Assembly: GCA_963770895.1 (NCBI GenBank)
Contig: CAVYRF010000002.1
Location: forward strand, 4,096,001-4,160,000
Length of the DNA stretch: 64,000 bases
DNA from: an uncultured Acidobacteriota bacterium
Lineage (GTDB): Bacteria > Acidobacteriota > Thermoanaerobaculia > Multivoradales > UBA5704
Direction of reading: 5' to 3'
Shown: positions 2,646 through 53,248 of the stretch, in pieces
Numbering within the stretch: position 1 is the first letter of the stretch
How the letters are laid out: every line of letters starts with the position of its first letter
Translations under genes and position numbers: made by a program
Notes under the pieces: generated by a model
Seen by the model: the letters and a program-made list of their open reading frames with translations, nothing else
Told to the model about the DNA's origin: nothing
Database searches by the model: none

Positions 2646-2646
2646 C

Positions 2647-7370: not shown

Positions 7371-9647
7371 TCAGGCGGGGGTGAGGCCGGATTGGGGGTC
7401 GCGGCGGGCGCGGCTGTCGGTGCGGTAGAGGCGGGCGCCGGGGTGCGGGCTCCAGGGATCAGGGAGGAAGCGCTCGGCGGTGAGGTCGGCGCGGCCCAGG
7501 TAGCCGCGGGCGACGCCGGCGCCGCCGACGAAGAGCTGGCCGACCTCGCCGGCGGCGACGGGCTGCAGGCTGCCGTCCAGGAGGTGGAGCTGGGCGTCGG
7601 CGGGGGCCAGGGCGGCGGCGGCCTGGGGGTCGCCGGCCAGGTGGCGGGCCAGCGCCGGGGCGCAGTGCAGGTGGGTGGTGGCGCGGCCGGCGAGCGCGGC
7701 TTGCAGGCTGGGGTGGGCGGCGGCGGGAGCATGGGCTGCGGTGGGCGGCGCGGGCGTAGTGCGGCGGCGCAGTTGGTCCAGGTTGCCCAGGGCGGCCAGC
7801 ACGTCGTCGGTCGGGGCGCCGAAGTCGATCAGGCAGGCGACCTCATCCACCTCCATGCGGCGCAGGCGTTCCAGGGTGCGGGCGCAGCTGTCGGGTGTGC
7901 CGATCAGGCCCGAGCCCTCGGCGACGTAGCGGTCGTAGGCGCGGCCGACCAGCAGGTCCAGTTGGGCGCCGGCCAGATCCTTGGGATCGCTGTCCAGGCC
8001 GACGCTGGCGGCCAGCGAGCGCAGCAGGCCGAAGGAGGTCTTGAGGTAGGCGCTGAGCGGTTCGCGCACCACGCGGTGCACTTCGTCCAGGGTGGCGCCG
8101 ACGTAGGTGTGGAGCATCACCGTCACGGTGCCGATGCCGGGGTGGCCGGCCTGGCGCCAAGCCTGGCGATAGACGCGGATCTTGCTTGCCACTTCGTCGG
8201 CTTCCTGGCCCAGCATGTGGGTCAGGACGCCGGCGCCGACCTCGCCGGCCAGGCGGAAGGTTTCGGGGTTGCCGGCGGCGGTGACCCAGACCGGCAGCTC
8301 GGGTTGCACCGGCCGCGGGAAGATGCGCACCGGCACCTGGTTGCCGGCGCCGCCGGGCAGGCTCAGGGCTTCGCCGCGCCACAGGCGGCGGACGGTTTCG
8401 ATGCCGCGCGTCATCACCTCCTGGCGGTCGGCGTAGGCGGCGGGATTGAGCACGAAGTCGTTGGCGTGCCAGCCCGAGGCGAACGACACGCCGACGCGGC
8501 CGCCCGACAGGTTGTCGACCAGCGACCACTCTTCGGCGACCAGCAGCGGGTTGTGCAGCGGCAGGACGACGCTGCCGGCGCGGATGAGCAGGCGCTCGGT
8601 CGACGCGGCGATGGCGGCGCTCATCACCGCCGGGCTGGGGTAGAGGCCGCCGAACTCGTGGAAGTGGCGCTCCGGCGTCCAGATGGCGTGGAAGCCATTG
8701 CGGTCGCCAAAGCGCGCCCCTTCGAGCACCAGGCGATAGTGGTCGGCGGTCTTGCCCGCGGTGTAGTTGCCAAAATAGAACAGGCTGAAGGCCAGCGGGC
8801 GGTCGGCGGGGCTGGCGGCGGCCGTGGCGGCAGCGGCGGTGGCCGTGGGGGAAGCGACGGTGGCGGCTCGTGCGCCCGGCGCATCGTGGGTCGTCGCGAC
8901 GGCCCGCGTGGCTGCGGGCTGGTCGCCGTCGAGCCGCAGCGGGCCTTCCCGCAACAGCGTCCACAGCATCTCGACGGGCTCCAGGTCGGGCGCGGATGGA
9001 CCTGTCGGCGCGCCGGCCATGCTTGCTTCGCCGGCGTCGCTGGCCGGGTTGGCGGCGCCGTGGTCGTCCGGGCGTCCGTCGCCGGCGGCCAGCAGGCCGG
9101 CGAGGGTGCTGTGGCTGACCATTATGCCGTGAGGGAGACCGGTTGCGCCGGAGCGGTAGAGCACCCAGGCAAGGCTGTCGCCGGTGACGGCCGGCGGGGG
9201 AGGCGCCGTCGGCGATGATGGCGAGGGGCTGGGCGCGCCGGCGGCGGCTGGCTCTGGATCGCCCAGCCACACGACCGGCACGCGGTGCGGCGGCAGGCGG
9301 CGTGCCAGCGACCGATGGAGGAGGATGGCCTTGGGACGGGCGGCGCCCAGGATCTGCGCCAGGCGTCCCGGCGGCTGGGTGGCATCCAGGCAGGCGCAGG
9401 CGCCGCCCGCTTTCAGCACGGCCAGGAGCGCCACCGGCAGATCCGGCGAGCGCGGTACCAGCACGGCGACGATCGCTTCGGCGCCCACGCCCAGCTGGCG
9501 CAGGCGGGCCGCCAGGTCGCCGGCATTGGCGTCCAGCTCCGCCCAGGTGAGCGAGCGGTCAGAGCCGGTGACGGCGACGTCGCCGGGCGCCGCCGCGACG
9601 CGGGCGGCCAGCAGGCTGACAAGGGTGCGATCGGGCTGTTCGCTCAT
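7371..9647 (-). CDS. Luciferase-like (LLM, MupA-type) flavin monooxygenase embedded in a degenerate adenylation-domain shell
   Basis: LLM core FSLFYF...[17 protein letters not shown]...[11 protein letters not shown]...[15 protein letters not shown]. Flanking A remnants [38 protein letters not shown]. Start MSEQPD at 9647. Confidence 0.85.
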
Positions 9648-9885
9648 CGGGCGTAGGGACTTGCGATCGGCGGCTGCGACGCCGGCAGACGATACCATGC
9701 CGGGCCCCCGGCTTGGACAGGTAAAGCCCTGCTTGCCAAGCATTTGGCGCGCTTCAGGGGAGGCCTGCCGGGAGCTTCCCAAGATCTGTCGCCCATCTAA
9801 GGAACGAAGTTGGTAAAGTGCTGGCGCCGGTGCCCGCCACCTCCGGCAGTCGTGCAACTGCGATCTCGCAGGAAGGAGATCCTCG

Positions 9886-32304
<22,419 letters not shown>

Positions 32305-32715: not shown

Positions 32716-33159
32716 ATGCATCAGGTAACGCAATTGAACGGCACGAGCGCCGCCATCGGTTCGCCGATGCCATACTTCGTGAACCCTGAGCTGAGCGCCA
32801 AGGCGCTCGAAATCAACTGGCGGTCGTTTGAGTACTACCCGCCGCTCGATCGCATCAAGCGCTACACCGAAGAGCATTACCAGGAAGAGATCCCGCTGCC
32901 GTGCGCCGCCGAGGTGGCGGGCATGGAAGCCACCTACTTCTCGGCTTTCTTCCGCAAGAAAGTCGGCATTCGCTATACCGACTGGCTGTGCTGCCTGCGC
33001 ATCTCGCACGCGATCCGGCTGATCTCCAGCCGCGACCAACCGATCGCGGACGTGGCGCTGGCGGTCGGTTTCAGCGATTTGCGGACGTTCCAGCGCGCGT
33101 TCAAGCGCGTCACCAACATGACGGCGCGCGAGCTGAAGGAGCGCGTCCGTCCGGCGTAG
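32716..33159 (+). CDS. AraC-family regulator (essentially DNA-binding domain only)
   Basis: AGMEATYFSAFFRKKVG...IADVALAVGFSDLRTFQRAFKRVTNMT double-HTH signature; start may be ATG 32767. Confidence 0.88.
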   Translation: MHQVTQLNGTSAAIGSPMPYFVNPELSAKALEINWRSFEYYPPLDRIKRYTEEHYQEEIPLPCAAEVAGMEATYFSAFFRKKVGIRYTDWLCCLRISHAIRLISSRDQPIADVALAVGFSDLRTFQRAFKRVTNMTARELKERVRPA

Positions 33160-33256
33160 CAGCCGGTTGAAAACCCCTGGACCGGCGGCAGCTCCGCCGC
33201 GTGAGCGGCGGGCGCTGCCGCGCCGGTGTCCCCAATCAGTGAATGGAGCGGCGGCG

Positions 33257-34780
33257 ATGTTAATTCGCAAGGTCAACCCCGACGAGTTCGTCGATGCGTA
33301 CGACGTCAAGGAACAGATGTTCTATCCCTGGAGCGACGTCGTCTCGACGCCTTTCGGCGCCGCATGGCTGGTGGTCGAACCGGGACAGCGCACCAAGCCG
33401 CACAACCACCACGAGCAGGAGACCTTCTTCATCGTCAGCGGCCGCGGCAAGATGACCTACGACGGCGAGAGCCTGGACGTGGAGCCGGGGCACGTGGCGT
33501 ACTTCCCCGCCTTCGGCGATCACATTTTGGAAAATACCTCGGCGGACGAAGATCTGCACTTCCTCACCATTTGGTGGGAAGACGAATCGGTCGTCTCGGC
33601 GCTCAAGGACGGCAGCGCCGCCGGCAAGACGTCCGGCGCCGTCAAGGACCTGGTGGCGGTGTCGCTCGCGGCAGCGCCGGCGGCGCAGTCCGCGGCGGCG
33701 GTGATGGCTCGTTACCTGCTGCTGCGCGGCGCCCGCGCACGGCTGGCCCTGACGCCCGCGCCGGCGGCCGCGGGTGCGGACGCCACCGCGGCGGCCCCGG
33801 CCTGCGACCTGCTGCGGCGTCTGGCCGCCGCCGGCGCCATCACGGTCGACGCGCAGGGCGTGACGTTCGCGCCGGCACAGTTCGCCGCGGCGGTGCGCAG
33901 CCACTACGACCAGGCGACGATGAGCCCGCGGCTGCGCGCCCTGGTGGATGCCCAGCTGTTGCGCGGCGCCGCCGTGGCGACCCTGGCCCGGCCGGCCGCC
34001 GCCGGCGCGCCGGTGCCGCTGCCGGGCTTCACCGATCACCGCCTGGAACCCTGGTTCGAGAGCGCGGCGCGGGTGCTGGCGACGCCGCGCGGCGAAGAGC
34101 GGCCGGTGGTTTTCGTGGGCGCCGAAGGTTGGAGCGAAGCCGGCCTGCTGCCGGCGCTGGCCGCCGCGGCGGGCAAGACCTGGGCGCCGGTGGCGCTGGT
34201 CGACCTGACCGAAGCCGGGGCCGCCCTGCCCGAGTGGGCCGCCACCGGCGAGCCGCCTGCCGCCTGGACCGCCTGGCTCGGCAACCTGGGCGCCAACCTG
34301 GTGCGCGACGATGCCGGCAAGGTGCCGCCGACCCAGGCATGGACGACCGAGCAGCAGCGCTTCATGGCGCGCCTGCTGCGCTACGTCGACGAAGCCGGCG
34401 CCGCCTACGATCCCGCCACCTTCTCGCCGCGCGAAGCGGCGCGGGTGCTGTCCGACCTGGTGCGCACGGCCGGCGAGTACGCCGACCGCGAGCGCCCCTG
34501 GAACGGCATCGCCAACCGGCGCGAAGAGCGCAACACCGCCGTGGCGCTCGAAGCCCTGGCGGCCAAGGTGCTGGCCTTCCTGGCCCAGCCGCTGCTGCCG
34601 GCGTGGAGCGACCGGCTGTGGCAGGCCCTGGGATACAGCCGGCCGCTCGGCGCCGGCTCCTGGGAGACGACCCCGACCTTCGTGCCCACCGGCAGCGCGG
34701 CGGCGGGCCTGGCAGAGCTGGCGGGACCGGCGCCGGTGCCGGCGGCGGCGCCTCTCGCGGTGGCGGGGGCGCCTTCCTGA
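33257..34780 (+). CDS. Cupin fused to degenerate methionyl-tRNA-synthetase-like domain (putative hydrazine-synthetase N-N-forming subunit)
   Basis: Cupin motifs PHNHHEQETFF and PAFGDHILEN. C-terminal part aligns by eye with the 37681 MetRS-like protein (PVPLPGF..RL..WFE; FSPR; P.LP..S.RLW..LG) but lacks HIGH, Zn-knuckle and KMSKS motifs. Confidence 0.8.
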   Translation: MLIRKVNPDEFVDAYDVKEQMFYPWSDVVSTPFGAAWLVVEPGQRTKPHNHHEQETFFIVSGRGKMTYDGESLDVEPGHVAYFPAFGDHILENTSADEDLHFLTIWWEDESVVSALKDGSAAGKTSGAVKDLVAVSLAAAPAAQSAAAVMARYLLLRGARARLALTPAPAAAGADATAAAPACDLLRRLAAAGAITVDAQGVTFAPAQFAAAVRSHYDQATMSPRLRALVDAQLLRGAAVATLARPAAAGAPVPLPGFTDHRLEPWFESAARVLATPRGEERPVVFVGAEGWSEAGLLPALAAAAGKTWAPVALVDLTEAGAALPEWAATGEPPAAWTAWLGNLGANLVRDDAGKVPPTQAWTTEQQRFMARLLRYVDEAGAAYDPATFSPREAARVLSDLVRTAGEYADRERPWNGIANRREERNTAVALEALAAKVLAFLAQPLLPAWSDRLWQALGYSRPLGAGSWETTPTFVPTGSAAAGLAELAGPAPVPAAAPLAVAGAPS

Positions 34781-34837
34781 CGCCTGCGGCGCCGTCGCGC
34801 CCGGCGCGGCGGCAGCGGGTCGCGGAGCCCATGCGAA

Positions 34838-36199
34838 ATGCTGCTTGAGCCGAAGGACGATGCGGAGTCGGGGTGGATCGGGATGCTGCCGCCCGCGCCC
34901 GCGCTGTGCCCGCTCAGCGGCGACGAGCGCTGCGACTCCGCGATCATCGGCGCCGGGTTGACCGGCCTGGCCATCGCCCGCCGCCTGGTCGAGCTGCGGC
35001 CGGGCGAGCGGGTGGTGATCGTGGACGCCCAACGCGTCGGCTATGGCGCCTCGGGGCGCAACGCCGGGTTCGTCGTCGAGCTGACCGACTTCGCGGCGCG
35101 CATGGCGCCGGCCGACCGCCAGCGCTACGTGCGGGTGGCCCGGTTCGGCATCCGCTGCCTGCGCGAGCAGATCGCCGAGCACGGCATCGACTGCGGCTGG
35201 GACGACCAGGGGGTGCTGCGCGCGGCGGCGGGGGAGGAGGGGCACCGCGCCCTGGCCTCCTGGCCTGCATGGCTGGACACCGCCGGTTCTCCCTACACCC
35301 GCCTGGACGCGGCGGCCACCGCGGCGGTGACCGGCACCCCTTTCTATACCGGCGCCATCCGTTTTGGCGGCACCGCCAACGTGCAGCCGGCGGCGCTGGT
35401 GCGCGGCCTTGCCGCCGCGCTCCCCGGCGAGGTGACGGTGTTTGAAAACTCGCCGGTGCGGGCGATCCGACGCCAGGCCCTCGGCAACGGTGGGGATCGG
35501 AGCCATGGCGGCAACGGCAAGAGCGGCGCCGGCGGCGGCGCCGGTTTCCACCTCGAGGTGGGCGGCGGCACGCTCACCGCTCGGCGCCTGTTCGTGGCGG
35601 TCAACGGCTATACCCCCGGCCTGGGCCTGCTGCGCCAGCGGGTGTCGCCGCTGTGGAGCTTTGCCAGCCTGACCCGCGTGCTGAGCGCCGGCGAGCAGGC
35701 GGCGGTCGGCGGCGATCCGCAGTGGGGAGTGCTGGCGACCGATCCCTCGGGCTCGACCGTGCGGCGCACGGCGGACCAGCGCATCATGATGCGCAACACC
35801 TTTCACTTCACCTCCGAGCTGACGGTGCCGCCGGAAGTGCGCCAGGCGGCGGCGGTGCGCCATCGCGAGGCGGTCGCGGCGCGCTGGCCGGCGCTCCAGG
35901 ACGTGCCGTTCGAGTACACCTGGGGCGGGCTGATGGGAGTTTCCAGCAACGGCCAGGCGTACTTCGGCGAGCTGGAACAGAACCTTTTCACCGTGGCGAT
36001 CTACAACACCGCAGGGCTCGCGATGAGCGCCGCGGCGGGCCGCCTGCTGGCGGACCTGGCCCTGGGCTTGCGGTCGCCCCTGCTGCAAGACATCGGGCAG
36101 CTGCCGCTGCCCTCCTGGTTGCCGCCCGAGCCGCTGCGCTCCGCGCGCGGGCGGCGCAAAGTCGCGAAGCTGAACAGCCAGGCCGGAGCCTACCTGTAG
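34838..36199 (+). CDS. FAD-dependent oxidoreductase, D-amino-acid oxidase/PuuB-like
   Basis: IIGAGLTG dinucleotide fold, GYGASGRNAG, QPAALVRGLA, YTWGGLMG. Confidence 0.85.
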   Translation: MLLEPKDDAESGWIGMLPPAPALCPLSGDERCDSAIIGAGLTGLAIARRLVELRPGERVVIVDAQRVGYGASGRNAGFVVELTDFAARMAPADRQRYVRVARFGIRCLREQIAEHGIDCGWDDQGVLRAAAGEEGHRALASWPAWLDTAGSPYTRLDAAATAAVTGTPFYTGAIRFGGTANVQPAALVRGLAAALPGEVTVFENSPVRAIRRQALGNGGDRSHGGNGKSGAGGGAGFHLEVGGGTLTARRLFVAVNGYTPGLGLLRQRVSPLWSFASLTRVLSAGEQAAVGGDPQWGVLATDPSGSTVRRTADQRIMMRNTFHFTSELTVPPEVRQAAAVRHREAVAARWPALQDVPFEYTWGGLMGVSSNGQAYFGELEQNLFTVAIYNTAGLAMSAAAGRLLADLALGLRSPLLQDIGQLPLPSWLPPEPLRSARGRRKVAKLNSQAGAYL

Positions 36200-36261
36200 G
36201 CCGCACCGCGGCGGCTCCGCACCCCACGAACGGTAGACCTCAGAAGGAAAGGCGACGAGCG

Positions 36262-37668
36262 ATGAAGCAGCGGAATCGGATCGAGGATGCGGAAGCCCGT
36301 CACACAGGCGCGCCTCTCGACGTGATCGGCATTGGGTTCGGTCCTGCCAATCTCGCCCTGGCCGCGTGCTTGAAAGAGCAGCCGGAGATGATCGAAGGCC
36401 GGCTGGTGCAGAGCCTCTTTTTGGAGCGCAAGCCGCACTACGAGTGGCACCCCGACATGCTGATCCAGGGGGCGGAGATCCAGGTGCCTTTTCTCAAGGA
36501 CCTGGTGAGCCTGCGCAATCCGATCAGCCGTTTTTCTTTCCTCAACTACCTGCACGTGCACGGCAGGCTGCTCGATTTTGTCAACCTGCGCACGTTCTTC
36601 CCCACCCGCGTCGAATTCAACCAGTACTACACCTGGGTGGCGGGGCAGCTGTCCGACCGCGTGCGCTACGACCGCGAAGTGCTGTCGGTGCAGCCCGTGC
36701 CGGCCGAGGAGGACGGCGTGGTCGAGCTGCTGCAGGTCAAGGCGCGGCACCAGGCGACCGGCCGCGTCGAGGAATACCTGACGCGCAACCTGGTGGTGGC
36801 GACCGGCGGCTCGCCCTACATCCCGCCCGGCATCGACATCAGCACCACCGACAAGGTGTTCCATTCGCAGACCTTCCTTGCCGGGCTGCGGCAGCACTTC
36901 CCCGACCCCGACGCGCCCTACCGGTTCGTCGTCGTGGGTTCGGGCCAGAGCGCCGCGGAGATCTTCCAATACCTGTTCTCCAACTACCCCAACTCCGACG
37001 TGACGGCGACGATGCGGCGCTTCGCCTACAAGCCGGCCGACGAAAGCGAGTTCGTCAACGAGATCTATTCGCCGGCGATGACCGACGTGTTCTTCGGCCT
37101 GCCCGAAGCGGAGCGGCGCAGCCTGCACGCGGCGCACGCCGACACCAACTATTCGGCGGTCGACCTGGAGCTGATCCGTTCCATCTTCCGCGCCATGTAC
37201 CAGATGAAGGTGAACGGCCAGAGCCGCGTGCGGGTGCGCGCGATGTGCGAGCTCAAGCAGCTCGAAAAGAGCGGCGACAGCCTGGTCGCCACGGTGTGGA
37301 ACAAGGTGGCGGCGCGCATGGAAACCCTGGAAGCCGACGGCGTCGTGCTGGCGACCGGCTTCACCCGGCCGCGCCGCCATCCGCTGCTGCGCGAGCTGAA
37401 CAACCACCTGCTGACGACGCTTGACGGCGCCTACGACGTCCACCGCGACTACCGGGTGCGCAGCGTGCCGGGCTTCACGCCGGGCATCTATCTGCAAGGT
37501 TTCTGCGAGACCACCCACGGCATCAGCGATTCGGTGCTGTCCATCCTGCCGGTCCGCAGTCAGGAGATCGTGCAGTCGATCGTCGGCGGCACTTGCAGCC
37601 GGGCCGAGGACCTGGAGACGGCGGTGGCGAGCGCCGCCTATCTGCCGAGCTCGGGCGAACCGCTGTAA
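36262..37668 (+). CDS. L-lysine N6-/L-ornithine N5-monooxygenase (IucD/PvdA family)
   Basis: DVIGIGFGPANLALA, WHPDMLI...QVPFLKDLVSLRNP.S.FSFLNYL, VVGSGQSAAE, TNYSAVD, VLATGF, THGISDSVLS. Confidence 0.93.
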   Translation: MKQRNRIEDAEARHTGAPLDVIGIGFGPANLALAACLKEQPEMIEGRLVQSLFLERKPHYEWHPDMLIQGAEIQVPFLKDLVSLRNPISRFSFLNYLHVHGRLLDFVNLRTFFPTRVEFNQYYTWVAGQLSDRVRYDREVLSVQPVPAEEDGVVELLQVKARHQATGRVEEYLTRNLVVATGGSPYIPPGIDISTTDKVFHSQTFLAGLRQHFPDPDAPYRFVVVGSGQSAAEIFQYLFSNYPNSDVTATMRRFAYKPADESEFVNEIYSPAMTDVFFGLPEAERRSLHAAHADTNYSAVDLELIRSIFRAMYQMKVNGQSRVRVRAMCELKQLEKSGDSLVATVWNKVAARMETLEADGVVLATGFTRPRRHPLLRELNNHLLTTLDGAYDVHRDYRVRSVPGFTPGIYLQGFCETTHGISDSVLSILPVRSQEIVQSIVGGTCSRAEDLETAVASAAYLPSSGEPL

Positions 37669-37680
37669 GGCGGGGAGGAC

Positions 37681-39372
37681 GTGATGAAGAGAGTGCTGAT
37701 CACCGCCACGCCGCCGACTCCCAACGGCGAGCTGCACGTCGGACACCTTTCGGGTCCGTACCTGGCGGGCGACGTGTTCAAGCGGTTCTGCCGGCTCAAT
37801 GGGCGCGAGGTGCGCTACATCACCGGCGGCGACGACAACCAGAGCTACGTCGCCACCAAGGGCGAGCAGCTGAAAATGACGCCGCAGCAGACGGCCGACA
37901 AGTTCAACGGCGCCATCGCCGACATCCTGCGGCGGGCGCAGATCGAAGTGGACGTGTACGTGCAGCCGTTGCACTCGGCGCACCATCCGCAGTTCATCGC
38001 CGAGTTCGTAAAGCGGCTGTACGCCGCGGGCCACCTGGTGGGCAAGGACGTCGCGGCCGCCTGGTGCGGCCAGTGCGAGCGTTACCTTTTCGAGTCGTAC
38101 ATCGGCGGCATCTGCCCGCACTGCGGCGCGCACTGCGACGGCAACGTCTGCGAAGCGTGCGCCGAGCCCAACCAGTGCACCGACATGATCGACGCGACCT
38201 GCAAGAAGTGCGGCAGCCCGGCGCTGGAACGCTCCTACCGGCGGCTGTTCTTCCCGCTGGCGCCGTTCGCGTCGCGCCTCGCCGACTACTTCTCGCGGGT
38301 GAGCATGGGATCGCACCTGGCGGCCTGCTGCGACCGCATGCTCGCCAAGGGGCTGCCCGACATCCCGGTCAGCAACCTGGCGGACTGGGGCATTCCGGTG
38401 CCGGTGCCCGGCTTCGAGGGACAGCGGCTGTACGCCTGGTTCGAGATGGGGCCGGGGTATCTGAGCGCCATCAACGAAATGTTCGCCCAATCGGGGCGCG
38501 GCGACGCCTGGGCGGACTGGTGGAAGTCGGACGACGCCGAGGTGGTGCAGTTCTTCGGCTACGACAACGCCTACTTCCACACCACCCTCTTCACCTCGGA
38601 AATGATGGCGTACGACCCGGAGATCCGCCTGCCGGCGGCCTTCGTCACCAACGAGTTCTACCGGCTGGACGGGCTCAAGTTCTCGACCAGCCGCAACCAC
38701 GCCATCTGGGGCAGCGCGGCGCTCGACCACCTGCCCTCGGACGTGTTGCGCTACTTCCTCTGCCTGGACCGCCCCGAAACGGCGCAGACCAACTTCCGCT
38801 GGCAGGACTTCCGGCGCGCCGTGCACCGCGATCTGATCGAGGGCTGGCAGCCCTGGCTGCTGCAGGTGGCGCGCTCGGTGCGCGAGGAGCACCAGGGGAG
38901 CGTGCCGCAGATGGCGCCGCTGTCCGCCAACGAGCAGCGCTTCGTCGCCGAGATGGCGGGGCTGGTAGTGGCGGCGACTGCCGGCTATCAGAAGGAGAGC
39001 TTTTCGCCGCGGCGCGTGGTGGCGGCGCTCAACCAGCTGGTGGAGTCGGCGCGCATGTTCGGCGAGGCGGCCGGCTACTGGCGCAGCGGCGCCCACGAGC
39101 GGCGGCGCAATGCCGCGGCGCTGTCGGTCAGCGCCGTCGCGACGCTCGCGGCGCTGGCAGCGCCGATCATGCCGTCGCTTTCGGCGCGGCTCTGGTCCGA
39201 GCTGGGCCTGGGCCAGGCGCCCGCCGCGGGCGACTGGCCGACGCAGCCGGTGATGGTGCCGGCCGGCCGGCAGCTGCGCGGCATGGACAGCGCCTATTTC
39301 ACCGGTATCGACAGCGGGTGCGACGCGCTGGAGGCGGCGCGAGCGCCGGCGGGGGCCGCGGCCGTCGCCTGA
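37681..39372 (+). CDS. Methionyl-tRNA-synthetase-like class I aaRS paralog (biosynthetic)
   Basis: PPTPNGELHVGH (HIGH), four CxxC (CGQC, CPHC, CEAC, CKKC), FFGYDNAYFH, KFSTS (KMSKS variant); located in the tailoring operon. Confidence 0.9.
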   Translation: MMKRVLITATPPTPNGELHVGHLSGPYLAGDVFKRFCRLNGREVRYITGGDDNQSYVATKGEQLKMTPQQTADKFNGAIADILRRAQIEVDVYVQPLHSAHHPQFIAEFVKRLYAAGHLVGKDVAAAWCGQCERYLFESYIGGICPHCGAHCDGNVCEACAEPNQCTDMIDATCKKCGSPALERSYRRLFFPLAPFASRLADYFSRVSMGSHLAACCDRMLAKGLPDIPVSNLADWGIPVPVPGFEGQRLYAWFEMGPGYLSAINEMFAQSGRGDAWADWWKSDDAEVVQFFGYDNAYFHTTLFTSEMMAYDPEIRLPAAFVTNEFYRLDGLKFSTSRNHAIWGSAALDHLPSDVLRYFLCLDRPETAQTNFRWQDFRRAVHRDLIEGWQPWLLQVARSVREEHQGSVPQMAPLSANEQRFVAEMAGLVVAATAGYQKESFSPRRVVAALNQLVESARMFGEAAGYWRSGAHERRRNAAALSVSAVATLAALAAPIMPSLSARLWSELGLGQAPAAGDWPTQPVMVPAGRQLRGMDSAYFTGIDSGCDALEAARAPAGAAAVA

Positions 39373-39435
39373 GGCGGCAGGCCGGCGACCGCGGATCGAG
39401 GAACGACCCAAACGAATGACGAAAGGGATGAAGCC

Positions 39436-40863
39436 ATGAGCGAGACCTTCGACGTAATTATCATTGGCGGCGGCCCCGCCGGCACCACGGTCGCGACCAA
39501 GCTGGTGCAGCGCGGCCGCAAGGTGCTGCTTTTGGAGCGCGAAAAGTTTCCGCGCTTCCATATCGGTGAATCGATCACCGCCTTCGGCTTCACGGTGTTC
39601 AAGGAGCTGGGGGTGTTCGACGAGCTCAACGCGATGAACGAGGTGAAGAAGAAGGGACTGGAATTCGTGTTGCACGAGAAAAAGTACAAGGTCTTCTTCT
39701 TCCAGGAGAACCGCGACGAGCCGGCGCGCTGGGCGTTCCAGATGGCGCGCGACAAGTTGGACAACGTGCTGCTGCGCAACGCCCAGAAGGTCGGCGTCGA
39801 CGTGCGCGAAGAGCACCTGGTCAAGCGCGTCCTGTTCCAGGGCGACAAGGCCATCGGCGTGGAATTCAAGGATTACTCGATGGGGCCGTCCGAGGAGCTC
39901 AAGTACGCCTACGCCAAGTGGATCGTCGACGCGTCGGGGCAGGGGGCGCTGCTCAACCACCAGCTGAAGGACAACTGGTACAACGACCCGCTGCTCGACA
40001 ACAAGATGGCCATCTTCTGCCACTGGAAGGGCGACATCACGGTCAAGAACACCGACGACGAGCTCAACTTCAAGCTGTGCGTGCACAAGAACCGCCGCGA
40101 CTGGTGCTGGTACATCCCGATCGCCAAGGACACCCTGTCGCTGGGCGTGGTGCTGAGCCCCGAGACGGTGAAGCGCGAAACGCAGACCAAGTCGCTGGAA
40201 CAGATCTTCTACGAGTACGCCAAGGACATCCCGTTCATCAGCGACATCCTCAAGAACACCACCCTGGAAGCGGTGGAGAAGTTCCGCATCGTGCGCGACT
40301 ATTCCTACCGCTCCAGCCGCTACTACGGCAACCATTGGGCGATCGTCGGCGACAGCGCCGGCTTCATCGACCCGATCTTCTCGACCGGCCTGCAGGTGGC
40401 GTTCAACAGCGCCTACGCGCTGATCGACCCGCTCAACCAGCTGCTCGACCACGAGGGCCCCGGCGAGGTCGACCTGTCGGTGCTCAAGGGCTACGACTAC
40501 GCGGTCAACCGCTACTACCGCATCAATTCGATGCTGGTCTACCTGTTCTACCTGTGCCGGCTGGACTACGCCAACTACAACTTCTGGTACATGTGGAAGC
40601 ACATCGAGTGGGCCGGCTGGAGCGACCGGCTGAAGTGCGCGCGACTCTACATCCGCTACATCATGGGGTCGGCGCAGAACAAGAGCAAGTGGTTCAACCA
40701 GGTCCTGTTCGGCAATCCGGGCGCCGAAAACCCGCTGGGCGACGTGGCGATGGCGCTGTCGGCCAACTACGATAAGGTATTCAGCAAGCGCGCCGCGCGG
40801 CCGCCGCGCGAAGAGAAGGAAAAGCGGGAGCAGTGGGTCGGAGCCCAGGCCGGCGCGGCCTAG
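39436..40863 (+). CDS. Flavin-dependent halogenase-family protein
   Basis: GGGPAG, FPRFHIGES, VKKKG (candidate catalytic Lys), DASG, WCWYIP (WxWxIP), GDSAGFIDPIFSTG. Confidence 0.82.
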   Translation: MSETFDVIIIGGGPAGTTVATKLVQRGRKVLLLEREKFPRFHIGESITAFGFTVFKELGVFDELNAMNEVKKKGLEFVLHEKKYKVFFFQENRDEPARWAFQMARDKLDNVLLRNAQKVGVDVREEHLVKRVLFQGDKAIGVEFKDYSMGPSEELKYAYAKWIVDASGQGALLNHQLKDNWYNDPLLDNKMAIFCHWKGDITVKNTDDELNFKLCVHKNRRDWCWYIPIAKDTLSLGVVLSPETVKRETQTKSLEQIFYEYAKDIPFISDILKNTTLEAVEKFRIVRDYSYRSSRYYGNHWAIVGDSAGFIDPIFSTGLQVAFNSAYALIDPLNQLLDHEGPGEVDLSVLKGYDYAVNRYYRINSMLVYLFYLCRLDYANYNFWYMWKHIEWAGWSDRLKCARLYIRYIMGSAQNKSKWFNQVLFGNPGAENPLGDVAMALSANYDKVFSKRAARPPREEKEKREQWVGAQAGAA

Positions 40864-40950
40864 CCACGGCGCCAACCGCGCCGTACCCGGCCGCTGTCGG
40901 CCGCGACGTGTGACGCCGTATGCCACAGGCCCTTTGAGCAAGGAGACGCG

Positions 40951-43392
40951 ATGATTTCAGATATCCGGCAGGCGCTGCGCCAGATGGCCGCCCACCCCGG
41001 CTTCACTCTGGTGACCGTCTTGACCCTTGGCCTTGGCATCGGCGCCAACACGGCGATCTTCAGCATGGCGCGGGGGGTGCTGATGCGCCCCCTGCCCTAT
41101 GCCCACGGCGCCGCCCTGGTGCACATGGTGCCGCGCATCTCGGGCGCGGTCGGCGACCAGGTGTACTTCCCGGTGTTGGAGGTGCTCGACTACCGCCGCG
41201 AAAATCAGACCCTGGCGGCGGTGCTCGAATACCACTCGATGACGTTCAACCTGCTGGGCGAGGGCGAGCCCGACCGGGTGCAGACCGGCGTCGTCTCGGC
41301 CAACTTTTTCCGCGGCTTCGGCATCGCGCCGATCCTCGGCCGTGACTTTCGCCCGGACGACGACGCGCCGGGCGCCAACCCGGTGCTGCTGCTGTCCTAC
41401 GACTACTGGAAGGACCGCTTCGGCGGCGATCCCAAGGTCGTCGGCAAGCGGCTGCGCATGAACAGCCGTGAGATCGAAGTCATCGGCGTGCTGCCGCGGC
41501 TGCCCGCCTATCCCGGCAACGACCGGGTGTTCATGCCGACCTCTTCGTGCCCCTTCCGGTCGTCGGAAGGCACCAAGTCCAACCGCAACATCCGCATGGT
41601 CAGCATGTGGGCTCAGCTCAAGCCCGGCGTGACGCTCGATCAGGCGCAGGCCGACATCTCGACGCTGACGTCGCGCGAGCTGCGGTCGTTCCCCACCGCC
41701 TCGACCGCCGGCCTGCGCGTCGACCTGGTGCCGGTCAGCCAGGAGCTGACCGGGCACTTCCGGCCGACGCTCCTCATCCTGCTGGGGACGGTGGCCCTGG
41801 TGCTGCTGCTCGCCTGCGCCAACGCCGCCAACCTCACCTTTGCGCGGCTGCTCAGCCGCGAGCGTGAAGTGGTGGTGCGTGCGGCGCTGGGCGCCAGCAA
41901 GGCGCGCCTGGTGCGCCAGCTGCTGACCGAAAGCGTCCTGACGTCGCTCATGGGCGGCGTCCTGGGGTGCCTGCTGGCGGTCTTCGGGCTGGACCTGCTG
42001 GTCTCCTTCGCGCAGCGCTTCACGCCGCGCGCGGTGGAAATCCGCATCGACGGCGTGGTGCTGCTGTTCTCGCTGGGGCTGTCGCTGCTCGCCGGGTTCG
42101 CCTCGGGATGGCTGCCGGCGGTGCAGGCGCTGCGCCACAACCTGGCCGCCTCGCTCAAGGAGGGGGCGGGACGCTCGACGGCGGCAGCCGGCAAGCGGCG
42201 TTTCCGCGACCTGATGGTGGCGGCGCAGGTGGGGGTGTCGCTGGTGCTGCTGATCGGCGCCGGCCTGATGGTGCGCAGCCTGGTGCGGCTGATCGAAGTC
42301 GATCCCGGCTTCCGGCCGGAGCGGGTGCTGACCGCGACGCTGGAGCTGCCGTTCTCCAAGTACCCGCCGGGCGGGCCGCAGATCGCCAACTTCTTCACCC
42401 GGCTCTTGCAGGACATGGCGACCGATCCCAACGTCATCTCGGCGGCGGTGTCGAGCGACGTGCCGATGGGCGATTCCGACCTGATGACGCCGGACTACAA
42501 GGTCGAGGGGCAGCCGACGCCGGTCGGCCAGCCGGCGCCGCGCGCCGACGTGCACATCGCGAGCGAGGACTACTTCACGACGCTCGGCATCCCGATGGGC
42601 GAGGGGCGCTCGTTCACCTCGCAGGACAGCCTGCACGCGCCCGCGGTCATCGTCGTCAACCGCGAGATGGCCAAGCAGTGGTGGCCCAACCGCAGCCCGA
42701 TCGGCCAGCGCATCGCCATCAACTGGGCGCGCCATCCTGAGATGCGCACCATCGTCGGGGTGGTGTCCAACGTCCGCCACGAAGGGCTGACGGCCAAGGA
42801 GCACCCGACGATCTACCTGCCCTTCCAGCAGCTGCCGGGCGACGGTTCGCAGATCTTCGTGCGCACCCGCACCGACCCGTCCACCTTCCTGGCCAACCTG
42901 CGCGGGGCGGTGGCGACGATCGATCCCGAGCAGCCGGTGGCCAACATCCAGACCCTCGAACAGGTGCGCAGCAGCGCGCTGGCGCCCACCCGGCTGATCG
43001 CCATGCTGCTGTCGCTCTTCGCCGCCCTGGCGCTGATCATCACCGGCATCGGCATCGGCGCCGCCGTCTCCTTCGCGGTCGCCGAGCGCGTCTCCGAGAT
43101 GGCCATCCGCATGGCCCTCGGCGCCGACGGCGGCAGCGTCCTGTCGCTGCTCTTCAAGCGCGCCATGGGCCCGGTCTTCATCGGCTTGGCCCTGGGCCTG
43201 GCCGTCGCCATCACCCTGACCCGCGTCCTGGCCAGCAGCCTGGCCGGCATCGGCCTCTTCGGCATCGGCGCCACCGACCCCCTGGCCGTCGCCGCCGCCC
43301 TGGTTGTCCTCCTGGCCATCGGCGTCGTCACCTGCTTCCTCCCCTCCCGCCGAGCCGCCAAGGTCGACCCAGCCTCCGTCCTCCGCCAGTAA
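40951..43392 (+). CDS. ABC permease, duplicated MacB/FtsX type (ADOP-like)
   Basis: DIRQALRQM..HPGFT...LTLGLGIGANTAIFS, LLLACANAANL, RQLLTES, second half AIRMALGA, C-terminal P.RRAAKVDP; 813 aa; no adjacent ATPase. Confidence 0.9.
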   Translation: MISDIRQALRQMAAHPGFTLVTVLTLGLGIGANTAIFSMARGVLMRPLPYAHGAALVHMVPRISGAVGDQVYFPVLEVLDYRRENQTLAAVLEYHSMTFNLLGEGEPDRVQTGVVSANFFRGFGIAPILGRDFRPDDDAPGANPVLLLSYDYWKDRFGGDPKVVGKRLRMNSREIEVIGVLPRLPAYPGNDRVFMPTSSCPFRSSEGTKSNRNIRMVSMWAQLKPGVTLDQAQADISTLTSRELRSFPTASTAGLRVDLVPVSQELTGHFRPTLLILLGTVALVLLLACANAANLTFARLLSREREVVVRAALGASKARLVRQLLTESVLTSLMGGVLGCLLAVFGLDLLVSFAQRFTPRAVEIRIDGVVLLFSLGLSLLAGFASGWLPAVQALRHNLAASLKEGAGRSTAAAGKRRFRDLMVAAQVGVSLVLLIGAGLMVRSLVRLIEVDPGFRPERVLTATLELPFSKYPPGGPQIANFFTRLLQDMATDPNVISAAVSSDVPMGDSDLMTPDYKVEGQPTPVGQPAPRADVHIASEDYFTTLGIPMGEGRSFTSQDSLHAPAVIVVNREMAKQWWPNRSPIGQRIAINWARHPEMRTIVGVVSNVRHEGLTAKEHPTIYLPFQQLPGDGSQIFVRTRTDPSTFLANLRGAVATIDPEQPVANIQTLEQVRSSALAPTRLIAMLLSLFAALALIITGIGIGAAVSFAVAERVSEMAIRMALGADGGSVLSLLFKRAMGPVFIGLALGLAVAITLTRVLASSLAGIGLFGIGATDPLAVAAALVVLLAIGVVTCFLPSRRAAKVDPASVLRQ

Positions 43393-49755: not shown

Positions 49756-51603
49756 CTACAGGGCGTCGACGCGGCGGCTGAGGGCGGTCAGGCGGGCGGC
49801 CAGGCCGGCGAGGGTGGCGGCGGTGGATTCCAGGTGCTCGCGCTCGGCGCGGATGAAGCGGGTGTAGGGGGTGATGGCTTCGTCGATGCGGTGCTGGCTG
49901 CGCTCGGTTTCGCGTTCGAACTGGGTGGTGAGGGTGGCCATGAGCTGGCTGCGCAGGGCTTCGATCTTGGCGGCGAGGTCGCGCTTGGCGGCTTCGCGGC
50001 GGCTGGGGATGATGAACAGGCCCAGGGCGGCGATGACGCCGCCGGCGAGCAGGCCGGTGGCGTCGGCGGCGGCGCCGACCAGGACGTGGGCCAGCAGGGC
50101 TCCCAGGCCGATGGCTCCGACTTCGACCAGGGCGGTGGAGGTGACGGCGGCCTGGACGTCGGCGGCCAGCCGGGTGGCTTCGTGGTCGCGATCGTAGGCG
50201 TCGACGGCGGCCTGGGCGGCGCGGCCGACGCTGGCCAGCAGGCGGTCGCGCTGCAGCTCGAAGGCGCCGCCGACCTGGCCGACGATGCGCTCGGCGTGGC
50301 GGCGGCGGCGGTCGTCGATGCGGGCCATGACGGCCTGCCACTGGCGCAGGTCGGCGGTGACCATCCAGTCGATGATCTCGTGGACGCGCTGGTCGATCAG
50401 GCGCGGCACGTCGGCGACGACCTTGGCGGCGAACTCGGCCTTGATGCGCGACTTGTTGACCAGGTCGAAGACGCGGGCCAGGCGCATGGTGTCGTCGAAG
50501 AAGCGCACGCCGCGCTGCTCGAACTCGCTCAGCACCAGGGCGACGTCGGCGAGGCGGAAGCGGAACTCCCGGCCCAGGTCTTCGCCATAGAGGGCGAGCT
50601 GGCGGTCGATGTCGTCGATCGTGGACAGGTCGTCCGCCAGCAGCGCCAGGCGTGCGGCGGCGTCGTCGCGGTAGCGCTGCGCCAAGCGGGCGGCGACGCC
50701 CAGCGGGTTTTGCAGCTTGAGGCGCAGGCGCTCGGCCTGGTCCAGGGTGCCGGTGATGAAGCGCTCCAGGTCGGCGAAGCGGCTGGTGGCCAGCAGCGCG
50801 GCGTCTGGGGTGCCGGGGGTGCCGGAGGTGCCGGAGGCGGCGGGGTTGGCGGGGTCGGCGGCGGTGGCGGGTGCGGCGGCCGCGGCCTTGGCGCGCTGCG
50901 CCTGGCGGGCCGAGACGGGGAAGATGTCGGGGGCGGCGCCCAAGAGCGCCGCGGCGTGCTGGGCGACGAAGGCGCGGACCTGCTCGACGTCGGCGTCCGA
51001 GGCCAGGATGTCGATCTTGTTGATCACCACGACGATCTTCTTGCCCCAATCGCGGATGCCTTGCAGGAAGGCGCGCTCGCTTTCGGTGAAGGGGCGGTCG
51101 GCGGAGGTGACGAAGAGCACCAGGTCGGAGCGCGGCACGAATTCGCGGGTGATCGCTTCGTGCTCGCGATGGATGGCGTTGGTGCCAGGGGTGTCGACGA
51201 TGTGGATCTCGCGCAGCAGCTCGACCGGCGCGGTGACCACCCGGACGTCGGCTTCGGCGGTCGCGGTCGGGGCCGGCCCTGGCGCCTGGCCGGCGGCGCC
51301 GGCGGTGGGGGTGTTGGCGGCGGCGTAGCGCAGCAGCTGGACCTGGGTGGTGGTCGGCGTCACGCCTTCGGCGAGCACCGGGCTGCCGAGGAGGGCGTTG
51401 ATGAAGGCGCTCTTGCCGGCGTTGAATTCTCCCGCCACGACCAGCAGGAAGAGGTCGTCGAGCTGGGCGCCCGAGCGCCGCAGCACTGCGCGGTCTTCGG
51501 GCGTCGCGCCGCAGTCTTCGAGCGCCGCCGCCAGGTCGGCGAGCAGCTGGCGCTCCTCCTCCAGGAGCACTTCCTGCTGCGGGGCGAGCAGGCGCCTCAG
51601 CAT
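49756..51603 (-). CDS. Bacterial dynamin-like GTPase
   Basis: GEFNAGKS (G1), GVTPTT (G2), DTPG (G3), NKID (G4), helical C-terminus with hydrophobic hairpin; start MLRRLL at 51603. Confidence 0.88.
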   Translation of the reverse strand: MLRRLLAPQQEVLLEEERQLLADLAAALEDCGATPEDRAVLRRSGAQLDDLFLLVVAGEFNAGKSAFINALLGSPVLAEGVTPTTTQVQLLRYAAANTPTAGAAGQAPGPAPTATAEADVRVVTAPVELLREIHIVDTPGTNAIHREHEAITREFVPRSDLVLFVTSADRPFTESERAFLQGIRDWGKKIVVVINKIDILASDADVEQVRAFVAQHAAALLGAAPDIFPVSARQAQRAKAAAAAPATAADPANPAASGTSGTPGTPDAALLATSRFADLERFITGTLDQAERLRLKLQNPLGVAARLAQRYRDDAAARLALLADDLSTIDDIDRQLALYGEDLGREFRFRLADVALVLSEFEQRGVRFFDDTMRLARVFDLVNKSRIKAEFAAKVVADVPRLIDQRVHEIIDWMVTADLRQWQAVMARIDDRRRRHAERIVGQVGGAFELQRDRLLASVGRAAQAAVDAYDRDHEATRLAADVQAAVTSTALVEVGAIGLGALLAHVLVGAAADATGLLAGGVIAALGLFIIPSRREAAKRDLAAKIEALRSQLMATLTTQFERETERSQHRIDEAITPYTRFIRAEREHLESTAATLAGLAARLTALSRRVDAL

Positions 51604-51751
51604 GCGCGGGGGCCTGGCGTGTGCCGTGGCTGGAGGGTGCCGTGCCGGTGCCGCGGGGTGTCCCTGGGAAGGGTCGCCGGGCGTACGCCGGTGGAGACGT
51701 CGCCGGCGCCGGTGGCGGGCCGCGCGCTGGGCTTTGCCATGCGCCGGAGTA

Positions 51752-51767
51752 TGGCATGCCTTTAGCA
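51752..51767 (+). promoter_or_regulatory. Candidate sigma-54 promoter upstream of the lipoprotein gene
   Basis: TGGCATGCCTTTAGCA: GG-N10-GC spacing, close to TGGCACG-N4-TTGCW; ~70 bp upstream of ATG 51838. Confidence 0.4.
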
Positions 51768-51837
51768 CTGGTAGGATTGCGACGCTGACGCCGCGCTTGC
51801 GCCCTCCTCCGGCGGCGTCCCCTTGAAAGGTGAACCG

Positions 51838-53115
51838 ATGAACGCGAAGATGCTGCTGGTCCTGGCCGGTGTAGGCCTGCTTGGCGCCGGCTGTGCCGTA
51901 TATGTGCCGTTGGGGCCCCCGCCGGGCCCGCCACCCCCGTCGCCGTATACGCAGGGCGGCCCGCCGCCCTATCAGCCACCGCCGCCGGGAGCGCCCGGCG
52001 ACCAGGGGTATAACCCCGCCGGCGCCGACCAGCCGCCACCGCCGGGAGCCGACCAGCCGCCGCCGGGAGCCGATCAGCCGCCGCCGGGCGACGACCAGCC
52101 GCCGGCGGGCGCCGCGCCGCCTCCGGGCGACCAGGACCAGGCGGACGTCGGGCAGTTCTACAACCAGCTGTCGCCCTACGGCGAGTGGGAGCAGGTGCCT
52201 TCCTACGGCTGGGTGTGGGTGCCGCGCGGCATGGCTCCGGGCTGGCGACCCTACAGCGTCGGCCACTGGGTCTACAGCGACGCCGGCTGGGCCTGGGTGT
52301 CGGATGAGCCCTTCGGCTGGGCCTGCTATCACTATGGGCGCTGGTTCGACGACCCCGGCTTCGGCTGGGCGTGGGTGCCGGGTCCGGTCTGGGCGCCGGC
52401 CTGGGTCGCCTGGCGCAGCGGCGGCGGCTACATCGGCTGGGCGCCGCTGCCTCCCGCCGTCGGCTGGCGCGCCGGATTTGGGCTGCAGCTGGGCGGCGTC
52501 GATCTGAACGTGGCGATCGGGCCGACGCACTTCTGCTTCGTCGGCGAGCACGACTTTCTGTCGGCGCACGTGCACGACGTGCTGCTGCCGCCTTCGCGCG
52601 GCGTGACCCTGATGCGCAACACGGTCAACATCACCAACTACACGGTGGTCAACAACCGCGTGGTCAATCGCGGCGTCGCGGTCGATCACATCGAAAAGGC
52701 GGTCGGCCATCCGATCCAGGCGGTCCGCCTGGCGTCGTCGTCGTCGCCGGAGCGGGCCGGGGTGCGCGGCGGCACCGTCGCCTTCTACCGGCCGCCGGTG
52801 CCCGCCGGCCGCGCCGCAGCGGTGGCGCGTCCGCCGGCGCGCGTGGCGCCCAACTACAGCGCCGAAGAGCTGGACCGCCGGCACCAGGCGGAACGGCAGG
52901 ACCTCGAGCGCTACCAGCAGTCGCAACGCGAAAACCTGCAGGCGTTGCACCAGCGCGAGATGGCCAGCCAGTCGTCGGAGGCGGGGCGCAGGCAGCTGGC
53001 GCAGCAGCACGCCCAGGAGGTGCAGGCGCAACAGCAGCTGCACCAGCGCCAGGCGCAGGTGATGCAATCCCGCCAGCAGCGGGAGCGCGCGGCAGTGCCC
53101 CACCCGCACCACTGA
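51838..53115 (+). CDS. DUF6600-like Trp/Gly-rich lipoprotein
   Basis: Lipobox LLGAGC; Pro-rich GADQPPP repeats; LSPYGEW...WRPY..GHW...WVSDEPFGW..YHYGRW; Gln-rich tail. Confidence 0.75.
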   Translation: MNAKMLLVLAGVGLLGAGCAVYVPLGPPPGPPPPSPYTQGGPPPYQPPPPGAPGDQGYNPAGADQPPPPGADQPPPGADQPPPGDDQPPAGAAPPPGDQDQADVGQFYNQLSPYGEWEQVPSYGWVWVPRGMAPGWRPYSVGHWVYSDAGWAWVSDEPFGWACYHYGRWFDDPGFGWAWVPGPVWAPAWVAWRSGGGYIGWAPLPPAVGWRAGFGLQLGGVDLNVAIGPTHFCFVGEHDFLSAHVHDVLLPPSRGVTLMRNTVNITNYTVVNNRVVNRGVAVDHIEKAVGHPIQAVRLASSSSPERAGVRGGTVAFYRPPVPAGRAAAVARPPARVAPNYSAEELDRRHQAERQDLERYQQSQRENLQALHQREMASQSSEAGRRQLAQQHAQEVQAQQQLHQRQAQVMQSRQQRERAAVPHPHH

Positions 53116-53248
53116 TCCGTCGTCGCTTGTTTGGCGGTTTCTCCAGCACCGGCCGGCTTGATGAGCCGAACGGTGCCGCGAGCGCCGGCGATGGCGTGCG
53201 TGCCAGCCGCGGCTTCGACGTCGGAGCCGGCGGTGCCTGCCCGGCGGA

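Follow-up and report, generated by a model that had tools for sequence, protein, structure and literature searches.

Bacteria make hydrazine, diazo and related N-N groups mainly by way of cupin/methionyl-tRNA synthetase (MetRS)-like hydrazine synthetases, a family that is now mined for biocatalysts. Spb38-Spb40 of s56-p1, Tri26-Tri28 of triacsin and AzsN of azaserine are glycine-using cupin/MetRS-like routes to hydrazinoacetic acid in actinomycetes, and each of Spb40, Tri28 and AzsN combines the cupin and a live MetRS-like domain in one didomain chain. In a second, split layout, the cupin is a small protein of ~125 aa on its own, and the MetRS-like enzyme has a gene to itself. RHS1 and its MetRS-like partner from Rhodococcus jostii are a proven split hydrazine synthetase (PMC8664883), AsnHS from Burkholderia ubonensis is another (in an excerpt of the preprint 10.1101/2025.08.22.671884), and the cassette for the fuscazines consists of the N-monooxygenase FuzD, the cupin FuzE, the oxidoreductase FuzF and the MetRS-like enzyme FuzG (PMC13149037). 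Both layouts are already established and more than 1,200 hydrazine synthetases are estimated to exist (PMC13149037), therefore another hydrazine cluster would be unsurprising in itself. Here we describe a locus in a 64-kb stretch of DNA (the window, positions 4096001-4160000 of contig C2 in an 8.16-Mb, three-contig genome, G000, G+C ~70-78%) that points to a third architecture, in which the cupin is fused to a conserved MetRS-like domain that is, judged by motif loss, catalytically dead, and a separate gene encodes an apparently active enzyme.

Seven co-oriented genes on the + strand follow a nonribosomal peptide synthetase (NRPS) of 7472 aa, with gaps of 411, 97, 57, 62, 15, 63 and 87 bp from the NRPS to gene 1 and onward to gene 7. 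Pfam and NCBIfam profile searches, by which the genes were assigned (Table 1), found every function that an initial annotation of this DNA had listed for a co-oriented, tightly spaced set behind the NRPS, but its labels were shifted by one gene, and an AraC-family regulator was overlooked. The cupin that it named is indeed present as a Cupin_2 match, which forms the N-terminus of the second gene and does not lie in 32716-33159, which it had labelled the cupin and which is an AraC-type helix-turn-helix (HTH) gene. Furthermore, the degenerate MetRS-like domain in this second gene, for which we call the protein cupin-Psi, had been missed. The central idea of the annotation, a hydrazine operon, gained support, as the MetRS-like protein stands apart from the housekeeping MetRS (MetG) and the N-hydroxylase, the zinc cupin and the DAO-type oxidase are adjacent. 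On its sequence, the locus is fairly likely to be a complete cupin/MetRS-like hydrazine-forming gene set of the Spb38-40, Tri26-28 or FuzD-G kind in a three-protein layout. It shares a probable lysine N-hydroxylase, a zinc cupin, a MetRS-like enzyme and a putative FAD oxidase with the Spb, Tri and AzsN systems (the first two likened by description). With FuzD-G, RHS1 and AsnHS it has in common that the cupin and the MetRS-like enzyme come from different genes, which belong to a set of four that also provides an N-monooxygenase and a flavin oxidoreductase. In contrast to Spb40, Tri28 and AzsN, the fused MetRS-like domain appears dead and a second gene would give the activity, whereas in comparison with the small cupins of the split systems the present one carries an additional ~380 residues of MetRS-like fold without ATP-site motifs. 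Two further differences are the acidobacterial host and the pairing with a large NRPS and a halogenase.

The cupin of cupin-Psi spans residues 1 to ~120 and the MetRS-like domain residues ~130-490, and Pfam finds only the Anticodon_3 portion of MetRS in the latter. In an alignment of cupin-Psi, nine homologues and the live stand-alone enzyme, the PTPNGxLHxGH segment and the KFSTS loop are absent in 10/10 fusions. The GxDN stretch, which binds the ribose and substrates in PyrN, is also replaced in the fused domains, and the Zn-knuckle CP insert is lost in the shorter fusion forms, cupin-Psi included, and retained in the longer ones. Similarly, both HxGH and KFSTS were absent, by regular expression, in 34/34 matches of a first homology search. 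An exhaustive search of 1.84 billion representatives returned 784 matches, and the best 150 of these were classified: 102 carry a cupin and are at least 440 aa long, with both motifs in 79, neither in 21 and one in 2; the rest are 7 cupin-less live enzymes, 1 cupin-less protein of another kind and 40 proteins shorter than 440 aa. The architecture is therefore represented by at least 21 sequence clusters, and searches for didomain hydrazine synthetases that rely on domain architecture will score such dead enzymes as live.

All 11 sequences compared share the cupin ligands H49, H51, E55 and H89, and E55 would be the equivalent of PyrN E56. In alignments to plu4264 and to RHS1 (5UQP), a zinc cupin proven to form N-N bonds (PMC8664883), the His and Glu ligands of the domain keep their positions. 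The dead domain retains many residues that are invariant across the homologues. In an AlphaFold2 model of cupin-Psi with a predicted local distance difference test (pLDDT) score of 77.4, this domain lies mostly above 80, and its best fold match is PyrN-C (9l8v, E 1.1e-13, template-modelling score 0.57), followed by true MetRSs. The loss of the motifs indicates that the fused MetRS-like domain is catalytically dead, yet it is conserved and not decaying. Accordingly, the classical didomain form, with a cupin and a live MetRS-like domain in one chain, is not what this locus encodes. In a quick tree (19 rows, with Shimodaira-Hasegawa-like approximate likelihood-ratio (SH-aLRT) support only) the dead domains form a long-branched clade of their own (1.31) among the didomain enzymes, apart from the stand-alone clade. 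An origin of the dead domain in a recent duplication of the live enzyme was considered and is unsupported by this tree, in which long-branch attraction is possible. A survey by Matsuda et al. (ChemBioChem 2024) reportedly covers 401 hydrazine synthetases in 13 clades and may mention degenerate forms; no description of a cupin with a conserved dead paralogue and a separate live enzyme was found in the literature searched, nor was any hydrazine synthetase family member in Acidobacteriota or any dead MetRS-like domain, and two papers that did surface are about anammox.

Unusual forms were also seen among the representatives P0040 (819 aa), P0068 and P0125 (~1125 aa): one consists of two tandem cupins before a live MetRS-like domain, and the others are didomain enzymes extended by long additional stretches at the N- or C-terminus.

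The stand-alone MetRS-like protein is, by several lines of sequence comparison, a hydrazine-synthetase component rather than a MetRS. Among solved structures it comes closest to PyrN-C (9L8V/9VQ4, 296 bits), ahead of the Pyrococcus abyssi MetRS (249 bits), and 9L8V is the domain of PyrN that adenylates the amino acid and esterifies N6-hydroxylysine, as stated in the preprint excerpt (10.1101/2025.08.22.671884). The ATP-site motifs are kept as HVGH and KFSTS (HLGH and KFSTG in PyrN), which suggests that the enzyme is apparently active, and its four CxxC zinc-knuckle motifs parallel the two Zn knuckles of PyrN. GDDNQ replaces the TDEHG motif of MetRS, and the protein scores under every NCBIfam MetG cut-off (e.g. 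323 vs 587 and 289.5 vs 336.35). In addition, an ordinary MetG with HIGH, KVSKS, TDEHG and a C-terminal tRNA-binding extension is encoded elsewhere in the genome (contig C2, near 5.758 Mb). In BLASTP comparisons the live enzyme shares 32-43% identity along its whole length with six hydrazine synthetases, didomain or split, whose sources are cyanobacteria, a Chengkuizengella, a Pseudonocardia metagenome-assembled genome (MAG) and another Thermoanaerobaculia MAG. It shares 24% identity across 350 aa with the MetG of its own genome, which falls outside all other rows of the quick tree on a branch of 2.86. The initial annotation had named a grouping with housekeeping MetG as an outcome that would overturn its reading, and in the tree, the identities, the cut-offs and the PyrN-C match alike the protein does not group with MetG.

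The amino acid substrate can be predicted from eight pocket residues. These are T128, P129, D169, Q172, W371, M374, N412 and H416 in Spb40, by a scheme from Matsuda et al. that is reproduced in PMC12376268, where AzsN reads TPDQWMNH and the Thr enzyme ThzN reads SADQWYGH; the Glu enzyme PyrN reads SFVQALNR in the preprint excerpt (10.1101/2025.08.22.671884). The corresponding positions of the live enzyme, mapped via the PyrN-C alignment and a MAFFT alignment, are T9, P10, D50, Q53, W252, M255, N295 and H299. They read TPDQWMNH, identical to Spb40 and AzsN, and so they do in 5/5 orthologues with a complete N-terminus, a sixth being truncated at a contig end. Glycine is therefore the predicted substrate, and with such a glycine motif the expected product after cleavage by the oxidase is hydrazinoacetic acid. 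PyrN uses D-Glu and is one didomain chain, unlike this locus.

By homology to published chemistry, the gene set suggests the following pathway. The flavin monooxygenase would give N6-hydroxylysine, the stand-alone MetRS-like enzyme would adenylate glycine and esterify it onto the N-OH group, and the zinc cupin would rearrange the O-glycyl ester to an N-N linked Lys-Gly hydrazine. The DAO-type oxidase, in a proposed role like that of Spb39, Tri27 and FuzF, would then oxidize and cleave the lysine C6-N6 bond and free hydrazinoacetic acid, which would probably serve the adjacent NRPS. The best solved relative of the N-hydroxylase is MbtG, an L-lysine N6-monooxygenase (341 bits), followed closely by the ornithine enzymes PvdA (322), SidA (305) and KtzI (297). 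The nearest NCBIfam models of the oxidase, both below their cut-offs, are aminophosphonate oxidoreductase and L-pipecolate oxidase, and the latter enzyme also oxidizes a lysine-derived C6-N bond, which agrees with the proposed role by analogy only. The halogenase, which would modify the peptide, has GGGPAG and WCWYIP, where GxGxxG and WxWxIP define flavin halogenases; its best solved relative is 3e1t (179.6 bits), which we take to be CndH, then PltA and Bmp2-type enzymes, with CmlS also among the matches. PltA and Bmp2-type halogenases act on carrier-protein-bound substrates. The permease, in which MacB_PCD and FtsX each occur twice, belongs to the ADOP family, typical of Acidobacteriota, and would export the product.

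About 10 kb from the cluster, at 53249-56439 on the - strand, a gene for a LodA-like L-lysine epsilon-oxidase quinoprotein (LodA_N 262 bits) precedes one for a LodB-like flavoprotein; this lodAB-type pair and the proposed DAO step would both give aminoadipate semialdehyde.

That the dead and the live parts belong together is suggested by a natural fusion. P0042 (1155 aa) is a fusion of both genes in a single chain, with a cupin at residues 1-121, a dead domain at 134-572 and a full MetRS-like domain with HLGH at 582-1125, and it was found on 4 contigs, the longest of 26.8 kb. Furthermore, a predicted complex between the live enzyme and cupin-Psi residues 121-507 lent weak support, with ipSAE interface scores of 0.30, 0.47 and 0.51 (median 0.47, best control 0.00), a partner pLDDT of at least 82 and agreement between runs on at least 70% of contacts. 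In calibration, the ipSAE mark was reached by 58/80 solved complexes and 2/110 mismatched pairs, and scores of 0.60 or below comprised only 7/80 solved complexes and both passing mismatches. By analogy with PyrN-C, which is dimeric according to the preprint excerpt (10.1101/2025.08.22.671884), the dead domain is proposed to serve as a docking scaffold, which would form with the live enzyme the kind of pair that PyrN-C forms with a second copy of itself. A fuller model can be put forward tentatively, and we regard it as possible but doubtful: the dead domain, a pseudoenzyme that arose from a duplicated didomain enzyme, would heterodimerize with the live enzyme and hold the cupin at the active-site exit for direct handover of the very unstable O-glycyl-hydroxylysine ester, and hydrazinoacetic acid or an oxidized form of it would be installed on the orphan first carrier or the second, adenylation-less module of the NRPS, to yield the first N-N-containing, halogenated peptide from Acidobacteriota. 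The dead-paralogue architecture may show how an unstable ester intermediate is channelled.

The NRPS offers places at which such a building block might enter. Core motifs and Pfam matches give the order orphan carrier (T); C-A-T-T; C-[A deleted]-T; C-A-T; C-A-T; C-A(FkbM)-T; C-A-T-TE, where C, A and TE denote condensation, adenylation and thioesterase domains. The protein thus begins with an orphan carrier domain, module 1 has tandem carrier domains, and the adenylation domain of module 2 is almost wholly gone, an A6-A7-like remnant being left (window ~15900-16700, residues ~2060-2240). The orphan first carrier and the A-less module would be the obvious entry points for a building block supplied in trans, e.g. 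hydrazinoacetic acid, and the locus is a candidate route for a glycine-derived hydrazine into a large halogenating NRPS. Specificity codes were read by hand with GrsA numbering and code tables, and they are, in order, DVWHISLVDK, DIVNVGRISK, DFWNIGMVHK, DVWHLSLVDK and DATKMGHVGK. We take the first to stand for Ser, the third for Thr, the fourth, in the FkbM module, for Ser and the last for an Asp-like residue; the module 3 code DIVNVGRISK yielded no residue assignment by hand reading. The methylation element of the initial annotation was confirmed by Pfam and core motifs as an FkbM-type methyltransferase, inserted between A8 and A10 of an adenylation domain, and the Ser of this module is probably O-methylated. 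As the initial annotation proposed, a halogenated, O-methylated, N-N-containing peptide may be the product of hydrazine formation linked to the NRPS. A characterised N-N natural product from the Acidobacteriota class Thermoanaerobaculia was not found in the literature searched.

The end of a second NRPS lies at 3-5367 (+), with the order A-T-C, then A-T-TE. Its condensation domain ends at ~2640 and the next adenylation domain starts at ~2725 in another frame, and the two open reading frames (ORFs), 3-3110 and 2692-5367, have ~400 bp in common. This points to a frameshift within one module, either genuine or introduced by assembly.

Comparison with relatives indicates how stable the gene set is. 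MAGs named as Thermoanaerobaculia or Acidobacteriota are among the genomes of the same genus as G000, in agreement with the probable acidobacterium of the initial annotation, and cupin-Psi was matched at E <= 1e-30 in 6/9 same-genus genomes and in 17/41 genomes searched (G000 included). The related loci fall into two groups, and NRPS genes accompany all of them. In the first (L012-L018, seven Thermoanaerobaculia/Acidobacteriota MAG loci) the AraC gene and cupin-Psi are always present, and the DAO gene adjoins cupin-Psi in 6/6 loci that reach that far, i.e. wherever the contig extends. The second (L019-L024, six loci) has classical live didomain or adjacent split enzymes beside an N-hydroxylase. 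L012 has the order cupin-Psi, DAO, N-monooxygenase (NMO), MetRS-like, halogenase, ADOP, and L016 follows it up to the MetRS-like gene, at a contig end; the parts are contiguous in the present genome, G001 and G004. The MetRS-like and hydroxylase genes were looked for near cupin-Psi in L013, L014 and L017 and are not there, PhyH, creatininase-like, MFS, SDR and NRPS genes being found instead, and whole-genome searches placed them elsewhere in those genomes. Orthologues of the live enzyme (65-69% identity) and of the N-hydroxylase (67-71% identity) occur in 5/5 genomes behind L012, L013, L014, L016 and L017. In G003 an NRPS separates the NMO gene from the MetRS-like gene (L014, L036). The genes thus form a modular cassette, whose proteins evidently can work when encoded apart, or else do not always work together. 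The AraC gene, whose orthologues are 77-87% identical and lie upstream of the cupin gene in 7/7 loci L012-L018, is better conserved than the enzymes. Its transcription runs opposite to that of the cupin gene at each of these seven loci but in parallel with it in this genome, which thus has a local rearrangement.

In G005, the ORF of 509 aa directly before the MetRS-like gene (L035, 11712-13241, -) has zero Pfam matches.

Several observations weigh against reading the locus as a glycine-specific hydrazine pathway whose parts act together. The parts lie at three separate NRPS-flanked loci in G005, which has megabase contigs, and in G002 (Table 1), so the operon is not a constant arrangement and its proteins are not bound to act jointly. 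The pocket code relies on a published AlphaFold-based scheme and on mapping via the PyrN-C alignment, and the pocket of the genome's MetG, TPDGWAIH, is already partly shared with the live enzyme (counted as 4/8), with Gly, Ala and Ile of MetG changed to Gln, Met and Asn. In P0042, KFSTS reads CFSTS, the first Lys being replaced by Cys. The complex score is weak, and because PyrN-C is a solved dimer, the pass may reflect likeness only. The N-hydroxylase appears nearly as close to ornithine hydroxylases as to MbtG, and the DAO-family protein has no close solved or characterised relative, its best solved match being glycine oxidase at only 43.7 bits. In azaserine biosynthesis a succinyltransferase and a ligase are needed to load hydrazinoacetic acid on carrier proteins, as an excerpt of PMC10445470 states, whereas no succinyltransferase or loading ligase of the azaserine type was seen in the window.

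The scattered genes in G005 and G002, where the MetRS-like gene sits between NRPS genes and far from cupin-Psi and the N-hydroxylase, would also fit a MetRS-like enzyme that serves the NRPS alone, either by aminoacylating an NRPS-bound hydroxylamine or by supplying the A-less module, with cupin-Psi and the DAO protein separate or vestigial and the neighbourhood a product of rearrangement. The orphan T domain and the A-less module of the present NRPS, which need loading in trans, speak for it as well. We nevertheless consider this unlikely, since the parts co-occur in 5/5 genomes, are contiguous in the present genome, G001 and G004 and are fused in P0042, and carrier-protein loading by such an enzyme was not found in the literature searched. 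All characterised members of the MetRS-like clade work with a cupin, as far as PMC8664883, PMC13149037 and the preprint excerpt (10.1101/2025.08.22.671884) describe them. The same pathway might instead use an amino acid other than glycine, or the NRPS might take up the Lys-amino acid hydrazine uncleaved. Pocket codes are imperfect and Ser/Gly or Ala/Gly enzymes exist (preprint excerpt, 10.1101/2025.08.22.671884), and the unassigned code of module 3 would leave room for either variant. All eight pocket residues equal those of two characterised Gly enzymes and recur in the orthologues, however, and the cupin gene has a conserved DAO-type oxidase gene as its neighbour, which makes a departure of this sort quite unlikely.

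The hydroxylase could also mainly give N-hydroxy-lysine or N-hydroxy-ornithine for a hydroxamate siderophore-like peptide, with N-N formation absent or marginal, a possibility consistent with its near-equal closeness to PvdA, SidA, KtzI and MbtG. At L038 and L039 it occurs with halogenase, ADOP and NRPS genes but without cupin or MetRS-like genes, and the Ser, Thr and Asp-like residues predicted from the hand-read codes, together with the one unassigned code, would suit such a product. This would leave the conserved zinc cupin, the live Gly-pocket MetRS-like enzyme and the DAO oxidase in the operon unexplained; moreover, no TonB-dependent receptor or siderophore uptake gene was seen among the window ORFs, and halogenases are unusual in siderophore clusters, and we hold it to be very unlikely. 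Resistant copies of aminoacyl-tRNA synthetases are a known theme in gene clusters, and the 562-aa gene, with its full-length class I MetRS fold, anticodon-domain-like bundle and tRNA-synt_1g match of 299 bits, could in principle be a second, drug-resistant or spare MetRS that shields the producer from its own product. It is, however, below all MetG cut-offs, carries GDDNQ for TDEHG and three pocket changes relative to its own MetG, and is closer to PyrN-C and the didomain hydrazine synthetases than to any MetRS, while hydrazine synthetases are tRNA-independent (PMC8664883). A protective role of this kind is thus scarcely credible, and an identity as a housekeeping or resistant MetRS was rejected on the PyrN-C match, the MetG cut-offs, the motifs, the separate MetG and the identities.

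Table 1. Features of the window and of the dispersed loci in two related genomes
Feature	Position	Strand	Evidence
NRPS, 7472 aa	9886..32304	+	Pfam domain counts, core-motif positions
Short AraC-family HTH regulator, 147 aa	32716..33159	+	HTH_18 68.4 bits, HTH_AraC 43.2 bits
Cupin-Psi, 507 aa: cupin and degenerate MetRS-like domain	33257..34780	+	Cupin_2 57.2 bits, Anticodon_3 25.1 bits
DAO-family FAD-dependent oxidoreductase	34838..36199	+	PF01266 155.8 bits
Flavin Lys/Orn N-monooxygenase (N-hydroxylase, NMO)	36262..37668	+	PF13434 363.9 bits
Stand-alone MetRS-like enzyme, 562 aa, putative O-aminoacyl-hydroxylamine synthetase	37684..39372	+	tRNA-synt_1g 299.4 bits
Flavin halogenase (FADH2-dependent, carrier-protein-substrate type)	39436..40863	+	Trp_halogenase 93 bits
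ADOP-family duplicated MacB/FtsX permease, likely exporter	40951..43392	+	TIGR03434 869.9 bits vs cut-off 622.3
Possible cluster member, 828 aa: adenylation-domain fragments and MupA/Atu3671-type luciferase-like monooxygenase	7371..9857	-	TIGR04020 496 bits
G005/G002 locus: AraC, cupin-Psi, DAO			
G005/G002 locus: A-fragment/monooxygenase gene, MFS, NMO, halogenase, ADOP, NRPS			
G005/G002 locus: unknown 509-aa gene, MetRS-like gene, NRPS			

Two alternative ORFs, 33226-34848 in another frame and 37593-39419, were dropped, the former with zero Pfam matches. The possible cluster member upstream of the NRPS has A1-A3, then A6-A7, around the monooxygenase, without the A4-A5 pocket or the C-terminal subdomain, and its orthologues, at 56-61% identity, lie beside the NMO-halogenase-ADOP genes in the relatives L038 and L039.

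Between both NRPS systems, a DDE_3-family transposase with HTH domains (6208-7293, +) occupies a patch of lower GC (0.658). Beyond the cluster, a dynamin-family GTPase ORF of 1234 aa (49756-53460, -) overlaps an opposite-strand ORF of 430 aa (51823-53115, +; DUF6600 121.9 bits), and both have high third-position GC, therefore at least part of one call is probably spurious.

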